Origin: Prochloraceae cyanobacterium
GTDB taxonomy: Bacteria > Cyanobacteriota > Cyanobacteriia > Cyanobacteriales > JASJDA01
Direction of reading: 5' to 3'
DNA length: 64,000 bases
NCBI GenBank assembly: GCA_030065755.1
Contig: JASJDA010000003.1
Location: 5,454-69,453, forward strand
Shown piece by piece: positions 3,077-39,975 of the stretch. Position numbers and translations under genes: made by a program. How positions within the stretch are numbered: the stretch's first letter is position 1; each line of letters starts with the position of its first letter. Below the pieces are notes generated by a model. That model did no database searches. It was not told the DNA's origin and worked only from the letters and a program-made list of their open reading frames with translations.

Positions 3077-4207
3077 ATGGCGATCGAACGAGTTGGGATA
3101 ATCGGTGGCGGACAGCTAGCAAAGATGACGGGAGAATCTGCTAAAAAGTTGGGAATAGAATTAGTAGTGCAAACCCCTAAATCGAACGACCCTGCGGTTA
3201 GCGTAGCAAAGGAAGTAATTTTAGCCCCCGTAGACGACAGTGTTGCCACCGATCGCCTAGCCACTCATTGCGATGTAATTACCTTTGAAAACGAATTTAT
3301 TAATCTAGAAAAACTTCAACCCTTAGCAGAAAAAGGAGTTTGTTTTCGTCCCCGTTTAGAAGCATTAGCGCCTATATTAGACAAGTATCAGCAGCGTTGT
3401 TACTTAAAAGAGATAGGTTTACCCGTACCCAAATTTATAGCTGTAGAGTCGCAAAAGGCGATCGAGTCTCCCTTTGGCTATCCTGTAGTTCTCAAAGCGC
3501 GTCGTCACGGATACGACGGAAGAGGTACTTTTATAATTAAAGACCGACAAGAGCTAAAAGACACCTGGGAGCGTCTAGAACGACCTTCTATGATGTTAGA
3601 AGAGTTCGTACCTTTCGATCGAGAATTAGCGGTTATTGCTGCTCGCAGCCTTGCTGGAGATATAGTAGTATATCCGGTAGTAGAAACTAAGCAAAAAGAA
3701 CAAGTTTGCCGTTGGGTAATTGCTCCGGCTGTTGTTTCTTCGACAGTCATCTCGCAAGTAGAATCAATAAGTCGCACTCTGTTAGAAAAATTAGACGTAG
3801 TCGGACTATTTGGGATTGAACTATTTCTTACCTCTGACGACAAAGTATTAGTCAATGAAATAGCACCACGCACTCACAATTCGGGTCATTATAGTTTAGA
3901 TGCTTGTCAAACTTCCCAATTTGAGATGCATTTGCGCGCAGTGGCTGGTTTGTCTTTAGCTTCCCCTCAATTAAACTGCGATCGAGCCCTAATGGTCAAT
4001 TTATTGGGATACGAACACTCTCAAGACGACTATCAACAAAAACGCAGCCAGCTAGCCCAAATTCCTCAAGCTAGCGTCCACTGGTATGGTAAAACCGAAT
4101 CTCGTCCTGGACGGAAATTAGGTCACGTTACGGTTTTATTTGACCGCGAAAACCTAAAACTATGGGAAAAAACAGCTCGACAAATAGAATCGATTTGGTA
4201 CGGTTAA
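3077..4207 (+). CDS. purK: N5-carboxyaminoimidazole ribonucleotide synthase
   Basis: GIIGGGQLA, DVITFENE, GYDGRG, NEIAPRTHNSGH, GRKLGHVT. Confidence 0.97.
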   Translation: MAIERVGIIGGGQLAKMTGESAKKLGIELVVQTPKSNDPAVSVAKEVILAPVDDSVATDRLATHCDVITFENEFINLEKLQPLAEKGVCFRPRLEALAPILDKYQQRCYLKEIGLPVPKFIAVESQKAIESPFGYPVVLKARRHGYDGRGTFIIKDRQELKDTWERLERPSMMLEEFVPFDRELAVIAARSLAGDIVVYPVVETKQKEQVCRWVIAPAVVSSTVISQVESISRTLLEKLDVVGLFGIELFLTSDDKVLVNEIAPRTHNSGHYSLDACQTSQFEMHLRAVAGLSLASPQLNCDRALMVNLLGYEHSQDDYQQKRSQLAQIPQASVHWYGKTESRPGRKLGHVTVLFDRENLKLWEKTARQIESIWYG

Positions 4208-26975: not shown

Positions 26976-28046
26976 CTATTGTGGTTTGGCGATATCTCCC
27001 ACTTGGAATGTAGAATTTGAAGATACGATCGTGCCTTCGCTAGATTTGCTGTCTACGTCGGTCAACTTAATCTCGCCAATTTTTTCAGTTACTTCCCTAA
27101 TTACTTCACCTGTCTCGGGATCTTTTACTTGGCGAACAACTCTCTCAATTGATACTTTCATTCCGACTCGGAAACCATCTGAGGAGCCTTTATTGATAAT
27201 AACTTGAGTGCCAGCAATGTCTGCAACTAATGCTTTGACGTTACTCGATATTGTGCGAGGACTATTTCTTAAACCTCTAGGGGAAGCAGCAGTATTTTGA
27301 TAGCGAGAGTTTAGCTGAGTCACGACCTGGTCGATCGCTTTTTCGGTTGCTGTAGCAAGTAATTTATCCGCATCGATACTGTCAGAACTTCCACTAAATC
27401 CGTAAACGCTTATGCTACCTCGATCCGAGTCTTTAGCTTCTCCTTTTCCTTCAGCCACCATCAGAATCTCTCCAGTGGTTGTATCAACTACCCTGACGTT
27501 TAATCTAACGTTAGCTTGCGTGCTGTTAGACGAACCTCCATATCCCCAAACGCTAAATCCTTCTCGTTTGGTATCGGCATCAAATTCAGTAACAGAGCCG
27601 ATTATTATCATTTTTACACCCAACAGCTTGCCAATCTGAGCTGCTGTACTCGCATCGACTCTTCCAGAAGCGCCTAAATTTTGCTCAGTGAGAACGGCTT
27701 CAATTTTACTGCGTTCAATTACTCTATACAGACCGCTTTGCACTAACTTGTTGGTGAGGATATCGCTGACTCCCCTCGATCCTCGCCTAATTGAGCCAGG
27801 ACTGCTAATACTGCTAAAGTCAAAGTCTAATACAGCAATTCTCGGTCTTCCTTGTTTGCTTTGAATTTTGCTATTGTCTGGCGAATTCTTGTGCAAAGCA
27901 CCAGCTAAATTAAGATCGGAATCTAGCTCTTTGGCTTTGACTGGTTCGTTATAGGCGATCGGTAAGGTAAATAGTACAGCTGTAGCGCTAAAACAAATTC
28001 TATATAGCAGTGACGAGTTTTTATTTCGATCGCTTCTATAGTTCAT
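26976..28046 (-). CDS. CsgG/HfaB-family protein with FlgT-like C-terminal domain
   Basis: RIAVLDFDF, VIERSKIEAVLTEQNL, AAQIGKLLG, VRVVDTTTGEI, IINKGSSDG, KDPETGEVI; N-terminal signal-like segment. Confidence 0.85.
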   Translation of the reverse strand: MNYRSDRNKNSSLLYRICFSATAVLFTLPIAYNEPVKAKELDSDLNLAGALHKNSPDNSKIQSKQGRPRIAVLDFDFSSISSPGSIRRGSRGVSDILTNKLVQSGLYRVIERSKIEAVLTEQNLGASGRVDASTAAQIGKLLGVKMIIIGSVTEFDADTKREGFSVWGYGGSSNSTQANVRLNVRVVDTTTGEILMVAEGKGEAKDSDRGSISVYGFSGSSDSIDADKLLATATEKAIDQVVTQLNSRYQNTAASPRGLRNSPRTISSNVKALVADIAGTQVIINKGSSDGFRVGMKVSIERVVRQVKDPETGEVIREVTEKIGEIKLTDVDSKSSEGTIVSSNSTFQVGDIAKPQ

Positions 28047-28173: not shown

Positions 28174-29673
28174 TTATTTTGATTTTAAAGTTAAATAATT
28201 ATTAGAAACCGAAGAAGAGGTCAGGGGAAAAGTCACGGTGAAAGTGCTTCCAACTCCCTGCTGAGAACGTAGAGAAATACTGCCCCCCATTCCTTCAACT
28301 AGGGTTTTAACAATTGAAAGACCCAAACCAGTACCCCCAGTAGCGCGAGAGCGATCGTCGTCAACGCGATAAAAACGCTCGAAAATACGAGCTTGTTGTG
28401 CTAAGGGAATGCCAATACCGCGATCGCTAACTTGAATGGCAACTTTTGCTCCTTGCCGAGCTAATTTGACCGTAACTGGCTCTCGATCGTCGGAGTATTT
28501 AACAGCATTGTCAATTAAATTGAGCAGTACTTGTTTGAGGCGATTTATATCTGCTTTGACAATCATCGTCTTAGAACTAGATTTCACGTTGACAGTACGA
28601 TTGCAATATTCTCTCGCCATCCCTACTATTTCTTCGATGAAATCGTTGAGTACGATAGCCTCTATCTGAAAGTGCATCCTACCACTATCTACTCTTGCTA
28701 AATCTAATAAATCTTGCATTAATTGGATAGTGCGATTGGCTTCTGAAGATGCTATTTCCAGTGCTTCCCGTTGAGGTTGTGTCAAGTTATGACCTCGGCG
28801 CAAAGTACTTTGTAAATAGCCAGAAACAATAGTTAGGGGAGTGCGTAATTCGTGGGAAACATTGCTGAGTAATTGCTGTTGGTGTTCCCAAGCATCCGAG
28901 AGACGAACTAACATTTTCTCGAAGGTTTGTGCCAATTCCTTAACCTCGCTAGGAGGATTTTCTAAGTCTATGTGCGCTTCTTTGAGATCTTCAGCGGAAA
29001 TTTTTTCTGTTAGTTTAGAAATCCTCTGCAAAGGTTGAAGAGATCTCCCCACGTAAATGGCGAGCGCCACTGTTATTCCTGCAATTGACAGCAAGCTGGC
29101 TATACTCAAATTGCGTATCAGGCGCAAAAACATGGTTTGATCGCCAGTGATATCCTGAGCGATATAAAATTTCCCCAGCCTATTTCCTTTGACCTCTAGA
29201 GGAGTAGCGCAGAGCAACCAGTAGCGTCCTTCAACTTGCTTTATTTCGGGAATTGGGGGGACTTGTGTCAGGCTTAATAGATCCCTACCTTTAATCCCCA
29301 TTTCAATGGGATCCGATTGAGCGAGAACAATACCATCTTGATTTTTTATCCACAGTAAAATGTTAGCGGTAGTCCGGCGATCGATGGCTTTTTGCATCGC
29401 ATTTGGAAGCAAAACCATATCGCTGTAGATTTCTACATCGTGGGGGAAGCGATCGGCAATGTATTGAATATTTTGCTTGTGAGTAACAACTAGAATATTT
29501 TGCATCCTCAAACTCGTCCAGATGGCAACACCTCCTAGTCCGAGTGCTGAAAGGGTAACAACACCAACCGTTAACCTCATTCGTAAAGAAGACGGATCGA
29601 TCTGCTTTTTAAATTCACTTATTTTTTTACGCAGATGCGTGAAGAATTTCATAATATTTTTGTTAGATGCCAT
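28174..29673 (-). CDS. Membrane sensor histidine kinase (2 TM + HAMP), ManS/Hik27-like
   Basis: H-box NVSHELRTPLT, NLIDNAVKYS, DRGIGI, GGTGLGL. The ManS-like call is recalled similarity of the N-terminal region and is unverified. Confidence 0.9.
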   Translation of the reverse strand: MASNKNIMKFFTHLRKKISEFKKQIDPSSLRMRLTVGVVTLSALGLGGVAIWTSLRMQNILVVTHKQNIQYIADRFPHDVEIYSDMVLLPNAMQKAIDRRTTANILLWIKNQDGIVLAQSDPIEMGIKGRDLLSLTQVPPIPEIKQVEGRYWLLCATPLEVKGNRLGKFYIAQDITGDQTMFLRLIRNLSIASLLSIAGITVALAIYVGRSLQPLQRISKLTEKISAEDLKEAHIDLENPPSEVKELAQTFEKMLVRLSDAWEHQQQLLSNVSHELRTPLTIVSGYLQSTLRRGHNLTQPQREALEIASSEANRTIQLMQDLLDLARVDSGRMHFQIEAIVLNDFIEEIVGMAREYCNRTVNVKSSSKTMIVKADINRLKQVLLNLIDNAVKYSDDREPVTVKLARQGAKVAIQVSDRGIGIPLAQQARIFERFYRVDDDRSRATGGTGLGLSIVKTLVEGMGGSISLRSQQGVGSTFTVTFPLTSSSVSNNYLTLKSK

Positions 29674-32101: not shown

Positions 32102-32542
32102 TCAAGAAGAAGTAGCAATTTTAAAACCTAGTGCTTTTTTCTTCATAGTTTGAAAAATATTGTAAAATCCATTAGCACGGGAAGGTGTGAGACTTACCTT
32201 AAGACCAGTTTCTTCAATAAAATCGGGGGTTACTTGCAAGATTTCTTCTGGGGTTAAACCATTAAGTCCTTCTATTAATAAAGCGACTAAACCTTTAACC
32301 AACTGAGCGTCGGAGTCTCCTTTGTACAATATTTTTCCATCTTCGAGATCGGCAGTAATATAAACCTGAGAAACGCAGCCATTAACTTTATTTTCTGGTG
32401 TTTTGAATTCTTGCGGCATTTCTTGAAGTTTTTTGGCATACCACAGTAGTTGTTCGTAACGTTGCTTGGGATTTGAGCGACGTTTGAAACGTTGGACAAT
32501 GCGATCGAGGTTTGGAGGTAGAGGTGTTGCAGCAGATGACAT
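32102..32542 (-). CDS. sufE: Fe-S cluster sulfur acceptor SufE
   Basis: KVNGCVSQV, GDSDAQLVKGL, LTPSRANGF. Confidence 0.95.
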   Translation of the reverse strand: MSSAATPLPPNLDRIVQRFKRRSNPKQRYEQLLWYAKKLQEMPQEFKTPENKVNGCVSQVYITADLEDGKILYKGDSDAQLVKGLVALLIEGLNGLTPEEILQVTPDFIEETGLKVSLTPSRANGFYNIFQTMKKKALGFKIATSS

Positions 32543-33249: not shown

Positions 33250-33858
33250 TTAATCTATTGTTTCTTGCTTTAAGTCAGAAGAAGTATTACAATTCCACAG
33301 CATTAAATTTTCTTCAGAAGACATAAATATTGGTTTGACGGATACAGATGACAACCAAACTTGAAAAGAATTACCCCCTCGATCGATAAATTTTTCTAAG
33401 TCGGATAAAATTTTTGGGCGGTAAAAAGCGCATAAAGGTTCCCATTGACGATCTTTATTTTGAGGTACTAAAGCCACGATATTAGCTGGAAGCCCGTCTA
33501 AGTATTGTATCCAACTTTGCAGAATTTCTACTTGCAATTTAGGTAAATCGCAAGCAAGAAGTAAAATCCAATCGAAATAGGAAACGCGATTTATTTGAGA
33601 TAGTCCCTCAGCAAAAGCGATTATTGGTCCTCGACCCTGGCTAGACTCTTCGAGAAAAAAATAATCCTGTTTTAAGATAGTTTGATATTGAGTAACTCTA
33701 GGAGTAATAATATAAACGCGATCGCAACAAATATTCGCGGTAGAACAAACGCGATCGAGCATGGGAATACCTTTCCAGGGAATTAAGGCTTTATCTCGAC
33801 CCATGCGCGAACTTTTCCCTCCGGCTAAAACCAGTGCTGCTATTTTTGTTTCCATCAT
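33250..33858 (-). CDS. mobA: Molybdenum cofactor guanylyltransferase
   Basis: LAGGKSSRMGRDKA, LACDLP, EPLCAFY, NCNT. Confidence 0.93.
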   Translation of the reverse strand: MMETKIAALVLAGGKSSRMGRDKALIPWKGIPMLDRVCSTANICCDRVYIITPRVTQYQTILKQDYFFLEESSQGRGPIIAFAEGLSQINRVSYFDWILLLACDLPKLQVEILQSWIQYLDGLPANIVALVPQNKDRQWEPLCAFYRPKILSDLEKFIDRGGNSFQVWLSSVSVKPIFMSSEENLMLWNCNTSSDLKQETID

Positions 33859-33940
33859 TGCTTTTTATGGAACAAAGAAGAAGCCGAGCGGATTGACTGA
33901 GAAAAGTCCACTGTGCTGGAATTAAAAAAGATCGCCAAAG

Positions 33941-34261
33941 TCACCAAATATCGCCAAAGTCAGCGAATGGTAACGAATCACCAAAATCGCCAAATCCAGG
34001 ACCGATTAGATCGCCAAAGTCACTAAATGGTAACGAATCGCCAAAATCTCCCCAAAATGCTAGTAAATATTCTTCTAACTCTGCTTGAGAATTAAGTGAT
34101 GCTTGTTGGTGTTTTTCGCGAAGTTTTTCATGAATGGTTACCAGACGCTCTGAAATAGTTTTCTTCGGCGATGAAATTTTAGCCTCAGCAACAGCAGGAT
34201 TAACTGTTGCTAGAGCCATTAATATTCCTAAATAGCCAAGCTTGGTGTTGACTTTTATCAT
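33941..34261 (-). CDS. grrA: GrrA/OscA-type triceptide (cyclophane) RiPP precursor
   Basis: Signal-like N-terminus MIKVNTKLGYLGILMALA, leader ISERLVTIHEKLRE, core with eight aromatic-x-Asp motifs; lies downstream of the rSAM gene. Confidence 0.85.
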   Translation of the reverse strand: MIKVNTKLGYLGILMALATVNPAVAEAKISSPKKTISERLVTIHEKLREKHQQASLNSQAELEEYLLAFWGDFGDSLPFSDFGDLIGPGFGDFGDSLPFADFGDIW

Positions 34262-34292
34262 TAAATATCCTCAACTAAGACAAATTGGTTAA

Positions 34293-34324
34293 AACAGTTA
34301 TCAGTTATCAGTTATCAGTTATCA
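34293..34324. repeat. STRR (CAGTTAT)x4, with an inverted partner at 34441-34471
   Basis: AACAGTTATCAGTTATCAG... versus ...CTGATAACTGTT overlapping the rSAM 3' end. Confidence 0.8.
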
Positions 34325-34449
34325 GGTCTCCGTAACCCATTGTTTGGGAGAGAAAACGGAACAGCCTTACTTACTTGTTATTTTCCCCAAAAAACCTACT
34401 CTTGCCTGTTCCCTGTTGCCTTTTCCCTCTCCCTTCGGGAGATAACTGT

Positions 34450-35646
34450 TCAATGTTCGCTGATAACTGTTAATCCTAAGCGGCTTTCTAAGTTTTGTAA
34501 AATTATATCAGCAATTATCTGTTTGTTATATTGACAAGCCATTGTTTGCGAACAGCTAAAAGTGTTATTTTCCCAATATTTATTACTGGGCGCACCTCCA
34601 CCACAGAGACAGAAATACTCGCAGGTTTCCTGACATTCCCTTACTCCCTTATTAATATCATGATAGAGTCTTTGAAATTTATGACTTTGACAAACTGACT
34701 CTAAAGAATCTACTCTAAGGTTGCCCAGCACAAAATCACCATATTGTTCGCTTTTCATTGCCAGTAATTCTGGGGAAAATGTCGAAAAATTACCTTGGCT
34801 GTCGATACTAACAATAGAGAAAGGATGACACAACTCATTTTTTATTCTTTGTTTACCCGAGAGAATCAAAGAACTGATTTGCTCGAACTCTCGAACTTGA
34901 AATTCACCTTTAGTTGCTACTGTTAACTCCCAAAACCTCTGAAAAAATGCTCTAATCCGCTCTGCTTGATGAGATGAATTTAAGGAAGAATTACGATGAA
35001 TTCCTTCAATTTCTTCGATATTAAATGCTACTTTATTAATGCCATTATCTCGGAAAAAATTAAAAATTTCATCGGGATAATCGAGAGAATTTGCCGTCAA
35101 GACAGCAATGATTTGAAAATCTACTTCATTTTTTTTCAGTAACTCAATTCCTCTCATCGTTCCGGCATGAGTTCCTAACCCCGTTCGAGTCTTGCGATGG
35201 GCATCATGAATAAAATCAGGTCCATCTAAGCTAACCCCAACTTTAAAAGGATATTGTTGGAAAAAATCACACCACGCTTGGTTAATTAATAGTCCATTAG
35301 TTTGCACAGAATAAACTATTTTAGTATTGTCAGAACAGATTTGAAGCTGTAAGTTATCAATAATCTGTAAAGCTTTTTGGTAAAAGCTCAGAGGAACAGT
35401 AAGAGGCTCGCCAGCGTGCCAACAAACGGTAAATTTTTTCCTCATCCAAGAACTAGTTAGTATTCTTTGGAAAATTGGACTAATTAGCTCCAAAGATAGT
35501 TGGTGTTTTGATTGGCGGTCTGGTAAATAACAGTAATCGCAATCTAAGTTACAGTAAGATGATGCCTGAATAATGACCAAGCGAATCGAGCCAAATGACG
35601 AGATTTCTTTCTCATTTAATAACTCTTCAGTAGACTGTACGCTCAT
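34450..35646 (-). CDS. grrM: Cyclophane-forming radical SAM/SPASM peptide maturase (GrrM/OscB family)
   Basis: CNLDCDYC (CxxxCxxC), WHAGEPL, FNIEEIEG, FSTFSPELL, CQETCEYFCLCGGGAPSNKYWEN. Confidence 0.92.
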   Translation of the reverse strand: MSVQSTEELLNEKEISSFGSIRLVIIQASSYCNLDCDYCYLPDRQSKHQLSLELISPIFQRILTSSWMRKKFTVCWHAGEPLTVPLSFYQKALQIIDNLQLQICSDNTKIVYSVQTNGLLINQAWCDFFQQYPFKVGVSLDGPDFIHDAHRKTRTGLGTHAGTMRGIELLKKNEVDFQIIAVLTANSLDYPDEIFNFFRDNGINKVAFNIEEIEGIHRNSSLNSSHQAERIRAFFQRFWELTVATKGEFQVREFEQISSLILSGKQRIKNELCHPFSIVSIDSQGNFSTFSPELLAMKSEQYGDFVLGNLRVDSLESVCQSHKFQRLYHDINKGVRECQETCEYFCLCGGGAPSNKYWENNTFSCSQTMACQYNKQIIADIILQNLESRLGLTVISEH

Positions 35647-35648
35647 TA

Positions 35649-36719
35649 TTAAAATGCTGTCTTAGGTATTCTTTCCACTGAATCAACAATGCCTTGGAAA
35701 TGATTGGTAAGGACTTCTTGAGAATAAGGAACAACGCCAGATTCTCCAAACCATCCATCAAACATTTGCTTAAATTCAGGGTCTTCAATAAGATATCCTT
35801 GAATCGCCCTTAAAATACTATAATTAACAAAATCTCGCCAGTTAGAATCATTTTCTCGTAGCAAGCAGGCGTAGGATTCGCGACTAATTAGATCGTCTGG
35901 CGGGACAATTTCCCAAGTATCTGGTTTAGTGGCTCTTTGTTTGAGTGCCTCCAGAAGAATTCCATCACCAGCATAGACATCAATTTTTCCCTGTTGTAGT
36001 TGAGAGAAACCATCCTTACCATTTGCCACAGTAACCAAATTTAGTCGAGTGTCAAGAACTTTGAGAACATTTTCAGTGGTTGTATTTCGCTCAACCCCAA
36101 TGCGCAGAGAACGCAAATCTTTTAGAGAATCCAACTTGGTTCCTTTTTTTACCAATAATTGAGTTCCAGTGACAAAATAACTGAGGGAAAAATCCACATA
36201 TTTTTCTCGATTCCAAGTAAAGGTAGTCGGACCGCAGGAAATATCAACTTTGCCATCCATAACCAAATCAAAACGATTTTGCGTATTGACTTCTATTAAT
36301 TCCAGCTTGAGGGGCTTTTTTAAGGCTTTTTCTAGTTGGCTTTTTACAACTGTCATCATGTCAATTCCGTAGCCTACCCATTTCCCCTTTTCATTGACAT
36401 AACCAAAGGGTTCGGCATCCTTCCAAGCACCTGCTCTTATAACTCCCGTGCGCTTAATACGCTCTATAGTAGTTTCTGCGAGACTGGAGGATTGTAGAAA
36501 AATACTGAAGACAAATGCTAAAAAGCCAATATAGAAAAATTTGTGGTTAAAGATTCTGTTCAATATTTTAACTCCTGAAACACTATTATTTTTCGTTTTT
36601 GACAGAGTATCTATTTCTCTAGAAATCCTTCTAGCTGTAAGATAACGATTGCGAAACAGAAGGGCATTAATTGTTTTTGAAGCTAGTAAAAAATTTCCTT
36701 TGCTTGACATAAAATGCAA
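35649..36719 (-). CDS. grrP: Periplasmic substrate-binding-like orphan protein of the Grr system
   Basis: SBP family 3 motifs (DAEPFGY, GYGID, TFTWNREKYVDFS, DGILLE) immediately upstream of grrM. True start is probably downstream, nearer the signal peptide FFYIGFLAFVFSIFL. Confidence 0.8.
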   Translation of the reverse strand: MHFMSSKGNFLLASKTINALLFRNRYLTARRISREIDTLSKTKNNSVSGVKILNRIFNHKFFYIGFLAFVFSIFLQSSSLAETTIERIKRTGVIRAGAWKDAEPFGYVNEKGKWVGYGIDMMTVVKSQLEKALKKPLKLELIEVNTQNRFDLVMDGKVDISCGPTTFTWNREKYVDFSLSYFVTGTQLLVKKGTKLDSLKDLRSLRIGVERNTTTENVLKVLDTRLNLVTVANGKDGFSQLQQGKIDVYAGDGILLEALKQRATKPDTWEIVPPDDLISRESYACLLRENDSNWRDFVNYSILRAIQGYLIEDPEFKQMFDGWFGESGVVPYSQEVLTNHFQGIVDSVERIPKTAF

Positions 36720-36872
36720 TTAACAACCCTTACTCCATCCGCGCTCCAAACTATTATCAGAAGGGAAATGAATATTCATCTTCATTACTATACCATCCGT
36801 CTTCATCTTTCTCCCTCTAATTATGTTGTTATGCCAATTCTCGAAAATAATGAGAGACTTAGGAGAAGGTTA

Positions 36873-37131
36873 GGGAACAGGGAACAGGGAAGACAGGAAT
36901 TTGAGCAGACAAGATGCGATCGAGTGTAATTTAAGTTTATAGTTTTATAATTCAATTTATGGATCGAGCGATAAAAATAGAACAAGAAATTAAAGAATTT
37001 CGATTATGAATTTATTTCGTATCTGTTATTTTACATCCTATTCTCAAAAGTAACTGGAAAAATAAGAAATACTTTTTATTAATAAAAAAAGCTCAAATCC
37101 CTCTGTTCCCTATTCCCTGTTCCCTGTTCCC
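36873..37131. repeat. MITE-like element with GGGAACA-based terminal inverted repeats
   Basis: Left GGGAACAGGGAACAGGGAA...ATTTGAGC (36873-36906) pairs with right GCTCAAAT...TTCCCTGTTCCCTGTTCCC (37091-37131) around an AT-rich core. Confidence 0.6.
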
Positions 37132-37182
37132 TTTCTGAAAAACCACTTTTAACTCACTTTACTCAGACTATATGTTTTAGTT

Positions 37183-39975
37183 CTATTGTTTCTTCTGTGT
37201 TTGTTGATTCAATTGTTTTAATATGTTTTCTAGTTGGAGCTGATATTGACCGTAGCTGACCCAGTCTCCTCTACGCAGCGCCTCAATTCCTTTTTGGTAG
37301 GTCAAGAGCGCTTCTTTGCCGAGCCGGAGTACTTCAGACGGTACGGCTGTGTCTCCTAGCTGTACTTCAGGCATTTGCTGTTGTTGGCTGCCAAAAATGG
37401 CCGCAATAGCCTCATCGAGAGATTTTTCCATCACTATCTGATTCTGATAAGCGACGATAACTCGTTTCAACTCAGGCAACTCGCTTTGTTCGGCTCGCAG
37501 GTAAACTGGCTCGACATAGAGCAAAGAATTGAGTATGGGAATCACTAACAAATCGCCGCGAATCACCCTAGAACCTTGCTGACTCCACAAAGTCAACTGT
37601 TGGGAAATTTTGGGATTTTGATCGATGCGAGCTTCAATTTGCCTCGGACCATAAACTAATTCTTGTTTGGGAAACTGGTAGAGCAGCAACTTACCATAAT
37701 TCTCACCATCCGATCGCGCCGTCATCCAGGCGATCGTGTTGTCTTTATTAGCGGGAGTGAAGGGCAAAATCAGCAGAAATTCTGCTGTTTTTTCTCGCGG
37801 CAAGCGCATAATCGCATAGTAGGGCTGCATCAGTTGGGAGTTCCCTTCATAAATCTGTTTGGGGAAGCGCCACAAGTCCTCTCGATTGTAAAATACTTCG
37901 GGATTGCTCATGTGGTAAGTTAGATACATTTGACCCTGGATTTTAAATAAATCGCGAGGGTAGCGAAAATGAACTTTCACTGCCGTGGGAATTGACTGGC
38001 TCGATTCAAATAGGTTCGGGAAGATTTTGCGATAAGTAGCTAGAACAGGATCCTTTTCGTCAACGACAAAAAACTTCATGCTGCCGTCATAGGCATCCAG
38101 CACAACTTTAACCGAGTTGCGAATGTAGTTAACTCCACCCTCGATAATTTGCTGAGCATTTGACTCTCGTAAAATAGATTGAGCATCATTAGTGCGCCCA
38201 ACTGGCTCGGAATAGGGATAGCGATCGCTCACCGTATAAGCATCAATCAACCACTGCAGTCGCCCGTCAATCAGAGCCACATAAGGATCGTTGTCAAATC
38301 GTAGAAACGGCGCTACTTTTTGCACTCTTTCTTCAATCTGCCGGTAATAATGGATGCGGGACTGGTTAGTAAAGTAGTTGGAAATTAAAATCTTGATACT
38401 GCCAAAATCGAGAGCATAAGCCAGGCGATGCCACACAGAGGACAGGGGAACTCCACCAGTACCGTCGTATTGGGTGAATACGTTTTCACTTCCTTGAGGA
38501 TAGTCGAATTCGTCAGTTGTAGTGCCAGTAAAGATATAGGATTTTGTTTTTTCCCCGTAGTAAATTGCTGATGACTTAATTGTCAGGTTGACATTGGATA
38601 CGGGCGGTATATCTTTAATATAGAGTTTGGGTAAACCATCAGGAGTGACTGTGTTGACAGGACTCATGACTAATCCATAGCCGTGAGTATACTTAAGTCG
38701 CTGATTGACCCACGTTCGCGCCTTTTGTGGTAATTGTTCGTAGTCCAGTTCCCGCGCCGCCAGCATCACTTGTCGGTAATTATCGCCGTTTAAGTTGTAG
38801 CGATCTACATCTACGTCTTTAAATCGGTAGTAGAGACGAATTTCCTGAAGCTGGCGATAGGTATTCAGTAAAGGTCTGTAGTCCCACAACCGAATATTAT
38901 CAATTGTTGGCTGGTTTTCTAATAATACCTGGCGATTTAATTGGTCTTTAACCTGATAGTTAAACTGTGCTACCTCAGAGAGCCCGTAGGCTTTCTGGGT
39001 CAATTCAATATTATGAGCTATGTATGGCAATTCTTTTTCTAATTGGTTGGGAGCAACGATAAATTGTTCGACAAACCAGGGGTAAATGCCCCAAAGCAGC
39101 ACCCACGCACAAGCGCTCAAACCAATTCCGATTGCTGGGGTGGTTAAATTGCCGCCAAGGGCCGAGAAGACAAATAGCGCTGCTACTACTAGGGCTGCTA
39201 TGCTCAAAACGTAATAAGCTAAAATCCTAGCTTTAACGTCAGTGTAGCCTGCTCCGAAAACGACTCCTTGAGGAGAATAAAGTAACTGGTAGCGTTGTAA
39301 CCAGAAGCCACAGGCGGCTAAGAAAGCGATCGCTGAGCTAAGCCAGTTCAGATGAGCCCTCGCTTTCTGACCGTAGATAATCCTACTCCAGCCATTGACA
39401 AAAGAAATTTTTCCTTTCAATCCGTAAACCGATACCGACAGCAGCAATCCCCAAACCACCAACACTAAGAGCCAATTGAGAATTCCTTCGTAAAAGGGTA
39501 ATTGAAAAAGGTAAAAGCCAATATCGCGAGCGTAGATGGGATCGCGATCGTTAAAATAACTGGAATTGAGATACTTTAAGACTATTTCCCAGGCTGAGCT
39601 GCTCACTGTTGCTGTGCTGCTAGCGATCAGAAAAATCAGACCCAAAGCGATATAGTTAATGGTTTTTTTGACTACATTTTCTAAACCGTTCTCGGAGAGA
39701 AACTTCAGGGTGCGATTTGGTTTGAGTAAACGCACTGGCTCACTCGAGCTTATTATCAGAGCCAGTTGATAGTTTCCCCAAAGAAAAAGAAAGTAGAAAA
39801 TGAAGCTAACCAGCCAAAGTCCAATTTGCCAGCCCACTCTGAGCCAGAAAACTTCAGAAAAACCGACTCCTTCAAACCACCAGGCTTCGGTAAGCAGGTG
39901 TATGAGAGTTTTAGATATAAAGATACCTACAAATAGGAGGAGAACGATCGGAATGCTCGCGGTGCGCCAGTTCAT
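37183..39975 (-). CDS. UPF0182-family integral membrane protein
   Basis: DIGFYLFQLPF, GAGYTDV, NIRLWD, YTHGYG, NYIRNSVK, GPRQIEARIDQ, LLYVEPVYL. Confidence 0.93.
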   Translation of the reverse strand: MNWRTASIPIVLLLFVGIFISKTLIHLLTEAWWFEGVGFSEVFWLRVGWQIGLWLVSFIFYFLFLWGNYQLALIISSSEPVRLLKPNRTLKFLSENGLENVVKKTINYIALGLIFLIASSTATVSSSAWEIVLKYLNSSYFNDRDPIYARDIGFYLFQLPFYEGILNWLLVLVVWGLLLSVSVYGLKGKISFVNGWSRIIYGQKARAHLNWLSSAIAFLAACGFWLQRYQLLYSPQGVVFGAGYTDVKARILAYYVLSIAALVVAALFVFSALGGNLTTPAIGIGLSACAWVLLWGIYPWFVEQFIVAPNQLEKELPYIAHNIELTQKAYGLSEVAQFNYQVKDQLNRQVLLENQPTIDNIRLWDYRPLLNTYRQLQEIRLYYRFKDVDVDRYNLNGDNYRQVMLAARELDYEQLPQKARTWVNQRLKYTHGYGLVMSPVNTVTPDGLPKLYIKDIPPVSNVNLTIKSSAIYYGEKTKSYIFTGTTTDEFDYPQGSENVFTQYDGTGGVPLSSVWHRLAYALDFGSIKILISNYFTNQSRIHYYRQIEERVQKVAPFLRFDNDPYVALIDGRLQWLIDAYTVSDRYPYSEPVGRTNDAQSILRESNAQQIIEGGVNYIRNSVKVVLDAYDGSMKFFVVDEKDPVLATYRKIFPNLFESSQSIPTAVKVHFRYPRDLFKIQGQMYLTYHMSNPEVFYNREDLWRFPKQIYEGNSQLMQPYYAIMRLPREKTAEFLLILPFTPANKDNTIAWMTARSDGENYGKLLLYQFPKQELVYGPRQIEARIDQNPKISQQLTLWSQQGSRVIRGDLLVIPILNSLLYVEPVYLRAEQSELPELKRVIVAYQNQIVMEKSLDEAIAAIFGSQQQQMPEVQLGDTAVPSEVLRLGKEALLTYQKGIEALRRGDWVSYGQYQLQLENILKQLNQQTQKKQ

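Follow-up and report, generated by a model that had tools for sequence, protein, structure and literature searches.

Introduction

Triceptides carry three-residue cyclophanes, which three-residue cyclophane-forming (3-CyFE) radical S-adenosylmethionine (SAM) enzymes install on aromatic1-X2-X3 motifs; the available part of one account counts ~3900 putative pathways and ten characterized maturases (PMC11499958). The closest described system is OscA/OscB, which corresponds to GrrA/GrrM of the cyanobacterial GRRM system (TIGR04260, TIGR04261 and TIGR04262), a known family among the peptides that ribosomes make and that are then modified post-translationally (RiPPs). According to the accessible part of PMC11002830, OscB joins C7 of Trp to the C-beta of either Asn or Asp, and C4 of Phe to that of Asn, and YxdB joins Tyr C3 to the C-beta of Asp. 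Phe motifs processed by XncB, MscB and OscB give paracyclophanes, and ChlB acting on a non-native FDR motif gives a metacyclophane (excerpts of PMC11499958). Here we analyze a window of 64,000 nucleotides from a Prochloraceae cyanobacterium (assembly GCA_030065755.1, contig JASJDA010000003.1, positions 5,454 to 69,453), which holds a GRRM-type cluster whose precursor peptide ends in a core of aromatic-x-Asp motifs, most of them Phe-led. These three genes probably form a triceptide cluster of a distinct acidic sub-branch of the GrrM/OscB family, one that staples aromatic-x-Asp sites.

GRRM/OscB clusters and their chemistry are known; the acidic Phe-x-Asp variant, with an uncharacterized product, is new. 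Within the literature in reach, which did not extend to the texts and supplements of the primary OscB papers, we found no Phe-x-Asp GrrA/OscA core and no Phe–Asp link for the GrrM/OscB family. The literature search also returned no native function for GRRM/OscB clusters and no explanation of GrrP.

Results

Organization of the cluster

The cluster lies on the minus strand of the window in the order grrP-grrM-grrA, as given by the list of open reading frames (ORFs) and NCBIfam profile searches. An initial annotation, made from the sequence alone, had proposed the same order.

35649..36563, minus strand: grrP, 304 aa, substrate-binding-protein-like (TIGR04262, PF00497; probable start)
34450..35646, minus strand: grrM, 398 aa, radical SAM/SPASM maturase (TIGR04261, Pfam Radical_SAM)
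33941..34261, minus strand: grrA-like precursor gene, 106 aa plus stop (ORF; TIGR04260 leader match)

All three ORFs are intact. The grrP stop lies 2 nt before the grrM ATG, and the precursor gene follows downstream of grrM on the same strand after a spacer of 188 nt, with a GAGGA ~8 nt 5' of its ATG. The cluster had been drawn to end at 36719, which is indeed the start of the longest grrP ORF (35649–36719), but the probable gene is shorter. Its start is most likely the TTG at 36563, giving 304 aa, because an AGGAG lies ~8 nt upstream and the length is close to that of the 303-aa orthologue at L011, a Xenococcaceae-type locus described below.

GrrM scores 592.2 bits against TIGR04261 (cut-off 310) over positions 1–362 of the 363-position profile, and a six-frame search of the genome returns the same score. 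Together with the other NCBIfam matches, this bears out the reading of the locus as a GrrM/OscB-type triceptide cluster. The next NCBIfam model, AmcB, reaches 296 bits, below its own cut-off, and Pfam Radical_SAM gives 45.9 bits. C32, C36 and C39 (CNLDCDYC, a CxxxCxxC motif) as well as C319, C338, C342, C348 and C371 are invariant among the four GrrM paralogues of the genome. A 3-CyFE-family enzyme and aromatic1-X2-X3 motifs are thus both present at the locus.

An all-aspartate core behind a GrrA-like leader

The precursor ORF (33941–34261, minus strand) encodes 106 aa and ends in the core FWGDFGDSLPFSDFGDLIGPGFGDFGDSLPFADFGDIW. Its parts are as follows.

34181..34261, minus strand: N-terminal hydrophobic stretch ending in AEA, codons 1–27, read by eye as a Sec-type signal
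34058..34180, minus strand: leader, codons 28–68, with the helix motif x-R-L-x-x-I that the family conserves TISERLVTIHEKL and net charge +1, matched by TIGR04260
33944..34057, minus strand: core, codons 69–106, with eight aromatic-x-Asp motifs and a C-terminal Trp (motif count, alignment)
33950..33991, no strand: intragenic direct repeat, copy 1, 42 nt, C-terminal half of the core (reference copy)
34010..34051, no strand: intragenic direct repeat, copy 2, N-terminal half of the core (88% identity, spacing 60 nt)

The n/h/c layout and the A-x-A of the N-terminus were judged by eye. This signal-like stretch aligns and is partly conserved in all 13 rows of the subfamily alignment, with G12, L17, A18 and A27 invariant or nearly so. 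The core of 38 residues holds seven Phe-led motifs and one Trp-led motif (WGD, FGD, FSD, FGD, FGD, FGD, FAD and FGD at residues 70, 73, 79, 82, 90, 93, 99 and 102). Their spacings of 3, 6, 3, 8, 3, 6 and 3 form four back-to-back pairs with a 60-nt period, and all eight Asp residues stand at +2 from the aromatic residue. The core lacks Asn, Arg, Lys, His and Glu, has a net charge of −8 and contains eight Gly in 38 residues. In composition-preserving shuffles of the core the mean was 2.0 motifs (sd 1.1, maximum 7), and none of 200,000 reached eight. The number, pairing and all-Asp character of the motifs, the lack of Asn, Arg and Lys, and the 42-nt repeat with its 60-nt offset are all as initially annotated.

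The repeat is not a recent event. A recent duplication within this genome was considered and rejected: the two-half layout is common to all relatives aligned, and the halves of the core within one gene agree at 35–41 of 45 nt, compared with 32 of 45 for the same half between this locus and L010. The layout is thus old, perhaps homogenized.

The leader relates this peptide to GrrA. TIGR04260 is matched by 12 of the 13 subfamily members at E ≤ 0.01 (best 6e-10); in a genome-wide search with this profile the precursor scores 27.4 bits and the four other GrrA genes of the genome 54–113 bits. No Pfam family matches the precursor.

Comparison with OscA/OscB and other maturases

The locus shares with OscA/OscB the enzyme family, as defined by hidden Markov model, and the same three gene types. 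The peptides have in common the signal-like N-terminus, the helical leader, the repeat core and the aromatic-x-X3 register, and Asp is accepted by OscB as X3 when the ring is Trp. The differences lie in what fills that register. Canonical GrrA cores are Gly-rich and basic with Phe/Trp-x-Asn(Asp) motifs, whereas this core keeps eight aromatic-x-X3 motifs and departs from the rest of the description: it is acidic (net −8, against a median of seven Lys plus Arg), less rich in Gly (8/38, against a median of 34%) and has Phe-x-Asp in place of Phe-x-Asn, with the motifs back to back. There is a single precursor, and it lies downstream of grrM; upstream is the position of 91 of the 96 precursors surveyed. 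GrrM falls in a separate clade with ~14 fixed substitutions, and both precursor and GrrP score under their curated cut-offs.

Two characterized enzymes resemble parts of the predicted reaction. In excerpts of PMC11002830, YxdB links an aromatic ring to an Asp C-beta in Tyr-x-Asp, so that the ring residue differs; in excerpts of PMC11499958, ChlB, whose native motif is YDR, accepts Phe in the non-native FDR motif, so that X3 differs. Both come from other enzyme families, with one or a few motifs, and lie outside the cyanobacterial GRRM systems; against the remaining NCBIfam maturase models, the present GrrM stays far under the cut-offs. By sequence, the solved structures nearest to GrrM are those of anSME, at E 5e-30, and of ChlB, a triceptide synthase, at E 1e-17. 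The former (PDB 4K36–4K39) shares the radical SAM plus SPASM architecture and the abstraction of a C-beta hydrogen from a peptide substrate, but oxidizes Cys or Ser to formylglycine without making a C–C link; it is used here only to place residue 291 of GrrM.

Canonical cores and three all-Asp types

We surveyed the best 80 of 430 GrrM-encoding loci in species-representative genomes. Precursors were taken as same-strand small ORFs near grrM with a leader-like R-L/I motif and at least three aromatic-x-Asn/Asp motifs, a screen that misses other core types by design. It yielded 96 precursors at 65 of the 80 loci, among them 88 canonical precursors at 57 loci. Their cores contain 707 motifs, including 332 Phe-x-Asn, 249 Trp-x-Asn, 121 Trp-x-Asp and 1 Phe-x-Asp, with a median of seven Lys plus Arg (minimum 3) and 34% Gly. 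The claim that the present core is atypical is thereby upheld, as the canonical precursors are basic and Gly-rich with one Phe-x-Asp in 707. The accompanying picture of typical substrates as W/F-x-N needs amending: Trp-x-Asp is common, and Asp already serves OscB as X3 with Trp. The association of Phe or Trp with Asn or Asp is strong (Fisher p ~2e-37), a value that overstates it since the loci are kin and many Trp-x-Asp motifs come from one conserved C-terminal motif. The pairing of Asp at position 3 almost only with Trp may be a substrate rule of canonical GrrM enzymes.

Eight of the 96 precursors are all-Asp, and they fall into three types. The first is Phe-led as here and occurs at L010 and L011, labeled Xenococcaceae or Xenococcus. 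The second, in Crocosphaera (L069, L072 and L076), is Trp-led with a basic block. The third consists of long arrays of 12–14 back-to-back Trp-x-Asp motifs without Asn (L037, L042 and L052), which lie upstream of a GrrM with Ser291. An all-Asp core had been described as unusual; it is rare, and this one is Phe-led, but two Trp-led all-Asp types exist beside it. Across the all-Asp types, 51 of the 68 spacings are back to back. In the clade studied here, all five genome loci with a precursor have it downstream of grrM, and in all 91 cases elsewhere it is upstream.

The Crocosphaera type (L069, L072, L076 and the peptide P0010), which we did not find in print, is the sister type of the Phe-led one. 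Its enzymes form the sister clade, and it shares the grrP-grrM-grrA order, a homologous precursor, the all-Asp motifs and the terminal Trp. It differs in having Trp at motif position 1 and an RRRGG-type basic block in place of the middle motif pair, so its core is not purely anionic. The long Trp-x-Asp arrays share the all-Asp back-to-back motifs, the side of the branch in the enzyme tree and Ser291, but have 12–14 Trp-led motifs, a precursor upstream of grrM and no GrrP in the flanks examined.

One of the Crocosphaera loci, L072 (114–5016) of Crocosphaera watsonii WH 8501, has an in-frame stop in grrM and an intact precursor. Its grrP is cut to 232 aa, and a 541-aa ORF on the opposite strand, by eye a transposase, lies between grrP and grrM. 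This sister locus looks decayed. L108 has a grrM split in the same way.

The enzymes of all-Asp cores group together

A tree of 84 GrrM rows (80 loci and the four copies of the genome) was built with IQ-TREE under LG+G4 with 1000 ultrafast bootstraps (UFBoot) and left unrooted. The ten rows tied to all-Asp cores lie on one side of a branch (UFBoot 98, Shimodaira–Hasegawa approximate likelihood ratio test (SH-aLRT) 86). One of the ten, L081, is so labeled by its enzyme and GrrP only, as its contig ends before the precursor. The other 74 rows comprise 60 with a canonical precursor and 14 without a precursor in the screen. Within the all-Asp side, one clade (100/99) unites the Phe-type with the Crocosphaera-type rows, and inside it the three Phe-type rows stand together (97/82). 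The same grouping came from FastTree and from a quick search. In these trees the acidic GrrM is a separate, well-supported subclade.

The precursor is a conserved gene with a constrained core

Close relatives of the precursor, at 78–94% identity, keep all eight motifs. In the 13-member alignment D72, D75, D92, D95, D101, D104 and W106, as well as R39 and L47 of the leader, are invariant (13/13). Variation is seen at motif position 2 and in the spacers of three residues, and the middle pair D81 and D84 is replaced by a basic block in the two Crocosphaera-type rows. The ratio of nonsynonymous to synonymous substitution rates (dN/dS) is 0.27–0.35 against three close relatives. Between this locus and L096, dN is 0.069 and dS 0.643 in the core, and dN is 0.133 and dS 0.272 in the signal plus leader. 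Purifying selection is thus stronger on the core than on the leader. The precursor is a real, conserved gene with a constrained motif register, and one of the relatives carries the NCBI name 'hypothetical protein'.

Distribution

An exhaustive phmmer search of 1.84 billion representative proteins gave 9 matches at E ≤ 0.001, of which 8 are peptides of the same design with 106–150 aa. The ninth, P0009 (556 aa), was set aside as an unrelated repeat protein matched over 44 residues. Of 400 other cyanobacterial genomes, sampled evenly, 40 had a GrrM above its cut-off and none had a close relative of the precursor; two of the 400 gave weak precursor matches (29–30% identity, E ~2e-4) that end before the last core motifs. 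Metagenome contigs searched with the subfamily alignment yielded 19 loci, namely 8 Phe-type, 2 intermediate, 6 Crocosphaera-type and 3 uninterpretable (L107, L110 and L113, with no readable precursor). A GrrM of the same clade stands directly upstream of the precursor in 14 of the 16 interpretable loci, and the other 2 are without upstream sequence. The Phe-led form is otherwise seen only in two Xenococcaceae-labeled genomes and a few metagenome contigs. In these surveys the locus is a rare acidic branch of the known RiPP family. The product looks uncharacterized, in line with the initial expectation of a probably new one.

The two intermediate precursors (L103, 1803–2153, and L104, 692–1039) stand between the Phe-led type and the Trp-led Crocosphaera type. 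Their Trp/Phe-x-Asp pairs are mixed, and their mid-core block is hydrophobic or made of Gly, which suggests a graded series within the clade.

The source genome, of 8.46 Mb, has four GrrM systems, of which three are basic and one acidic, together with five genes each of the GrrA and GrrP-like kinds. The three other systems have ordinary basic Gly-rich precursors upstream of grrM; the other GRRM loci are on contigs C386, C94 and C327 (loci L001–L003 and L005–L008), and two of the GrrP-like genes lie on contigs, C164 and C172, that contain no GrrM match. The sampled cyanobacteria that bear GrrM have mostly one GrrM match, and two genomes have 2.

GrrP has diverged with the enzyme and the peptide

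By its Pfam match (SBP_bac_3, PF00497, 77.6 bits) GrrP is an orphan periplasmic substrate-binding-like protein. In the genome-wide TIGR04262 search it scores 185.7 bits, and the four other copies 211–280. GrrP is 62–74% identical to those of the clade's sister loci and at most 47% identical to the other 52, a pattern by which it has co-diverged with enzyme and peptide in the acidic clade. The clade's GrrP proteins have gained three conserved Arg, at 43, 243 and 298 (5/5 members). Charge complementarity to the peptide was not seen: the mature net charges in the acidic clade are −2, −16, −16, −12 and −12, and 26 others range from −16 to +2 with a median of −8.5. GrrP was not found in the flanking DNA examined near the long Trp-x-Asp loci L037, L042 and L052.

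Proposed route to the product

The precursor would carry an export signal at its N-terminus, followed by a helical leader and the 38-residue core. GrrM would bind the leader in the cytoplasm and, by the chemistry of the family, a 5'-deoxyadenosyl radical would take a hydrogen from the C-beta of the position-3 Asp. The resulting carbon radical would add to the position-1 ring, at Phe (probably C4) or Trp (C7), and the ring would re-aromatize. Each site would become a three-residue cyclophane, every ring lowering the mass by 2 Da and all eight by 16 Da at most. The stapled peptide would then be exported, probably by Sec, and cleaved after AEA. The mature peptide would have 79 residues, a net charge of −7 and a rigid anionic stapled tail with eight free carboxylates, and the co-diverged orphan GrrP may act on it outside the cytoplasm. 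We infer every chemical step, the positions on the Phe rings, the number of rings, the export and the role of GrrP.

Alternative explanations

Several observations weigh against this route, and they bear on different parts of it. The first part is the number of rings. Phe-x-Asp is nearly absent from canonical cores, where it occurs once beside 332 Phe-x-Asn and 121 Trp-x-Asp, so canonical enzymes may disfavor a Phe–Asp link and the known reaction may not carry over. Canonical substrates likewise seldom have motifs back to back (10 of 619 spacings among the 88 precursors), so full octa-cyclization may be hindered. GrrM could then staple some of the sites, for example one motif of each back-to-back pair or the Trp site only, for at most four rings, with the other Phe-x-Asp motifs serving structure or recognition. 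Other triceptide enzymes do cyclize in a hierarchical, order-dependent manner, according to the available part of PMC12912966. We regard such partial stapling as unlikely, although it is the strongest of the alternatives. Among the eight Asp columns of the motifs, six do not vary in any of the 13 relatives. The sister types carry 7–14 aromatic-x-Asp motifs, and of 68 spacings across the all-Asp types 51 are back to back. It would be difficult to account for such arrays unless neighboring sites can both react.

The second part is the reaction itself. The Pfam SPASM match of GrrM (17.6) is below the gathering score of 21.5. Fourteen alignment columns set the clade apart: they are conserved among the other 74 GrrM rows, at a level of 85% or more, and differ in 7/7 rows of this locus's clade. 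These columns cluster at residues 258–291. The clearest is residue 291, where 73 of the other 74 rows have Asp, and Ser stands in L046 and in each of the ten all-Asp rows. In the phmmer alignment, S291-P292-E293 of GrrM lies opposite Pro-Cys-Asp of anSME, with residue 291 two residues before the match of anSME Asp277, which we take to be the catalytic base. Position 291 is plausibly near the substrate because it aligns beside this active-site Cys-Asp stretch.

The substitution D291S and the others of the clade could thus mean altered chemistry and not only altered specificity. On Asp-rich cores the enzyme would then use another ring carbon or topology, or would combine the link with loss or oxidation of the carboxylate. 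Products off the main path have precedents: in excerpts of PMC12186529 a cyclophane-forming radical SAM enzyme gives aminomalonate from Ser as a minor product, and ChlB makes a metacyclophane on the non-native FDR motif (excerpts of PMC11499958). Against this stand the full-length score of 592 bits on the GrrM/OscB model, the lack of an accessory tailoring gene among the scanned neighbors, and an aromatic-x-X3 register that is exactly that of a triceptide. L046 has Ser291 without an all-Asp core, so Ser291 does not track all-Asp cores alone. We consider a different radical reaction very improbable.

L046 itself, from Tumidithrix elongata, is the only row outside the all-Asp group with Ser at this position and is among the 14 rows without a precursor in the screen. 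A 98-aa precursor (3104–3400) lies upstream of its long-branch GrrM, with a short core that begins with WGD and continues with three Trp-x-Lys triplets.

The last part is whether the small ORF is a substrate at all. The precursor scores 28.6 bits against TIGR04260 (cut-off 31, E 1.7e-6; residues 4–91 on positions 3–90 of 118), a match that covers the N-terminus and leader only, and GrrP scores 184.9 bits against TIGR04262, just under the curated cut-off of 190. That the ORF is an unrelated acidic secreted repeat peptide, or part of a decaying locus, is disfavored to the point of being extremely unlikely, since the sub-threshold profile score, the 'hypothetical protein' label on a relative and the decayed sister locus in Crocosphaera watsonii WH 8501 are set against three intact ORFs, a leader homologous to GrrA, a conserved place beside a GrrM of the same clade, a dN/dS of 0.27–0.35 and a conserved motif register.

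Neighborhood of the cluster

A UPF0182 gene and grrM flank grrP on either side. The neighbors scanned with profiles are Fur, NarM, MobA, UPF0182, RelA/SpoT and, at a distance of 7 kb, a CsgG-like gene; by eye only, the ORF of 146 aa at 32102–32542 looks SufE-like. No protease, exporter or tailoring gene was found among the scanned ORFs of at least 150 aa within ~8 kb, and no transporter gene (ABC permease or ATPase) among ORFs of at least 150 aa in 24–46 kb, of which 13 of 15 were scanned. The CsgG-family gene (PF03783, 155 bits; 26976–28046, minus strand) adjoins a HAMP histidine kinase gene (28174–29673, minus strand), ~7 kb from the cluster, with no link to the GRRM genes apparent.

The spacer between grrM and grrA contains two short tandem repeats.

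34295..34325, no strand: heptamer tandem repeat CAGTTAT, 4.4 copies, 100% matches
34402–34428, no strand: heptamer tandem repeat CCTGTTC, 3.4 copies

These heptamers are similar to the short tandem heptamer repeats of cyanobacteria. The RNA fold of the spacer is not unusual (z −1.1). Over 33700–37200, promoter-like sites were not above shuffles (8, against a shuffle mean of 9.0), and there was 1 terminator-like site, inside the precursor gene, against a shuffle mean of 2.5.

Discussion

Our preferred reading, a GRRM-type cluster that staples aromatic-x-Asp sites, places the locus on a rare acidic branch where enzyme, peptide and GrrP changed together. The predicted linkage, from Phe to the C-beta of Asp in adjacent pairs, is one for which we found no report for the GrrM/OscB family in the literature. 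The acidic switch is tracked by a few positions of the enzyme, among them 291, where Asp gives way to Ser. The four GrrM systems in one genome, three basic and one acidic, are a natural set for leader/enzyme orthogonality and for contrasts of specificity.

The initial annotation proposed a secreted, up to octa-cyclophane peptide, and a peptide of this kind could bind cations. We further propose, as an improbable idea, that paired Phe-to-Asp cyclophanes would hold the eight carboxylates in place, and that the peptide would be an exported calcium- or metal-binding agent acting with its own GrrP, in which three Arg were gained. For peptide chemists, the locus is a predicted source of a polyanionic, multiply stapled scaffold. 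For the biology of cyanobacteria, it offers a handle on the role of exported GRRM peptides. If the metal-binding proposal is true, it would give a first testable function to the long-unexplained GRRM systems, including their orphan GrrP.

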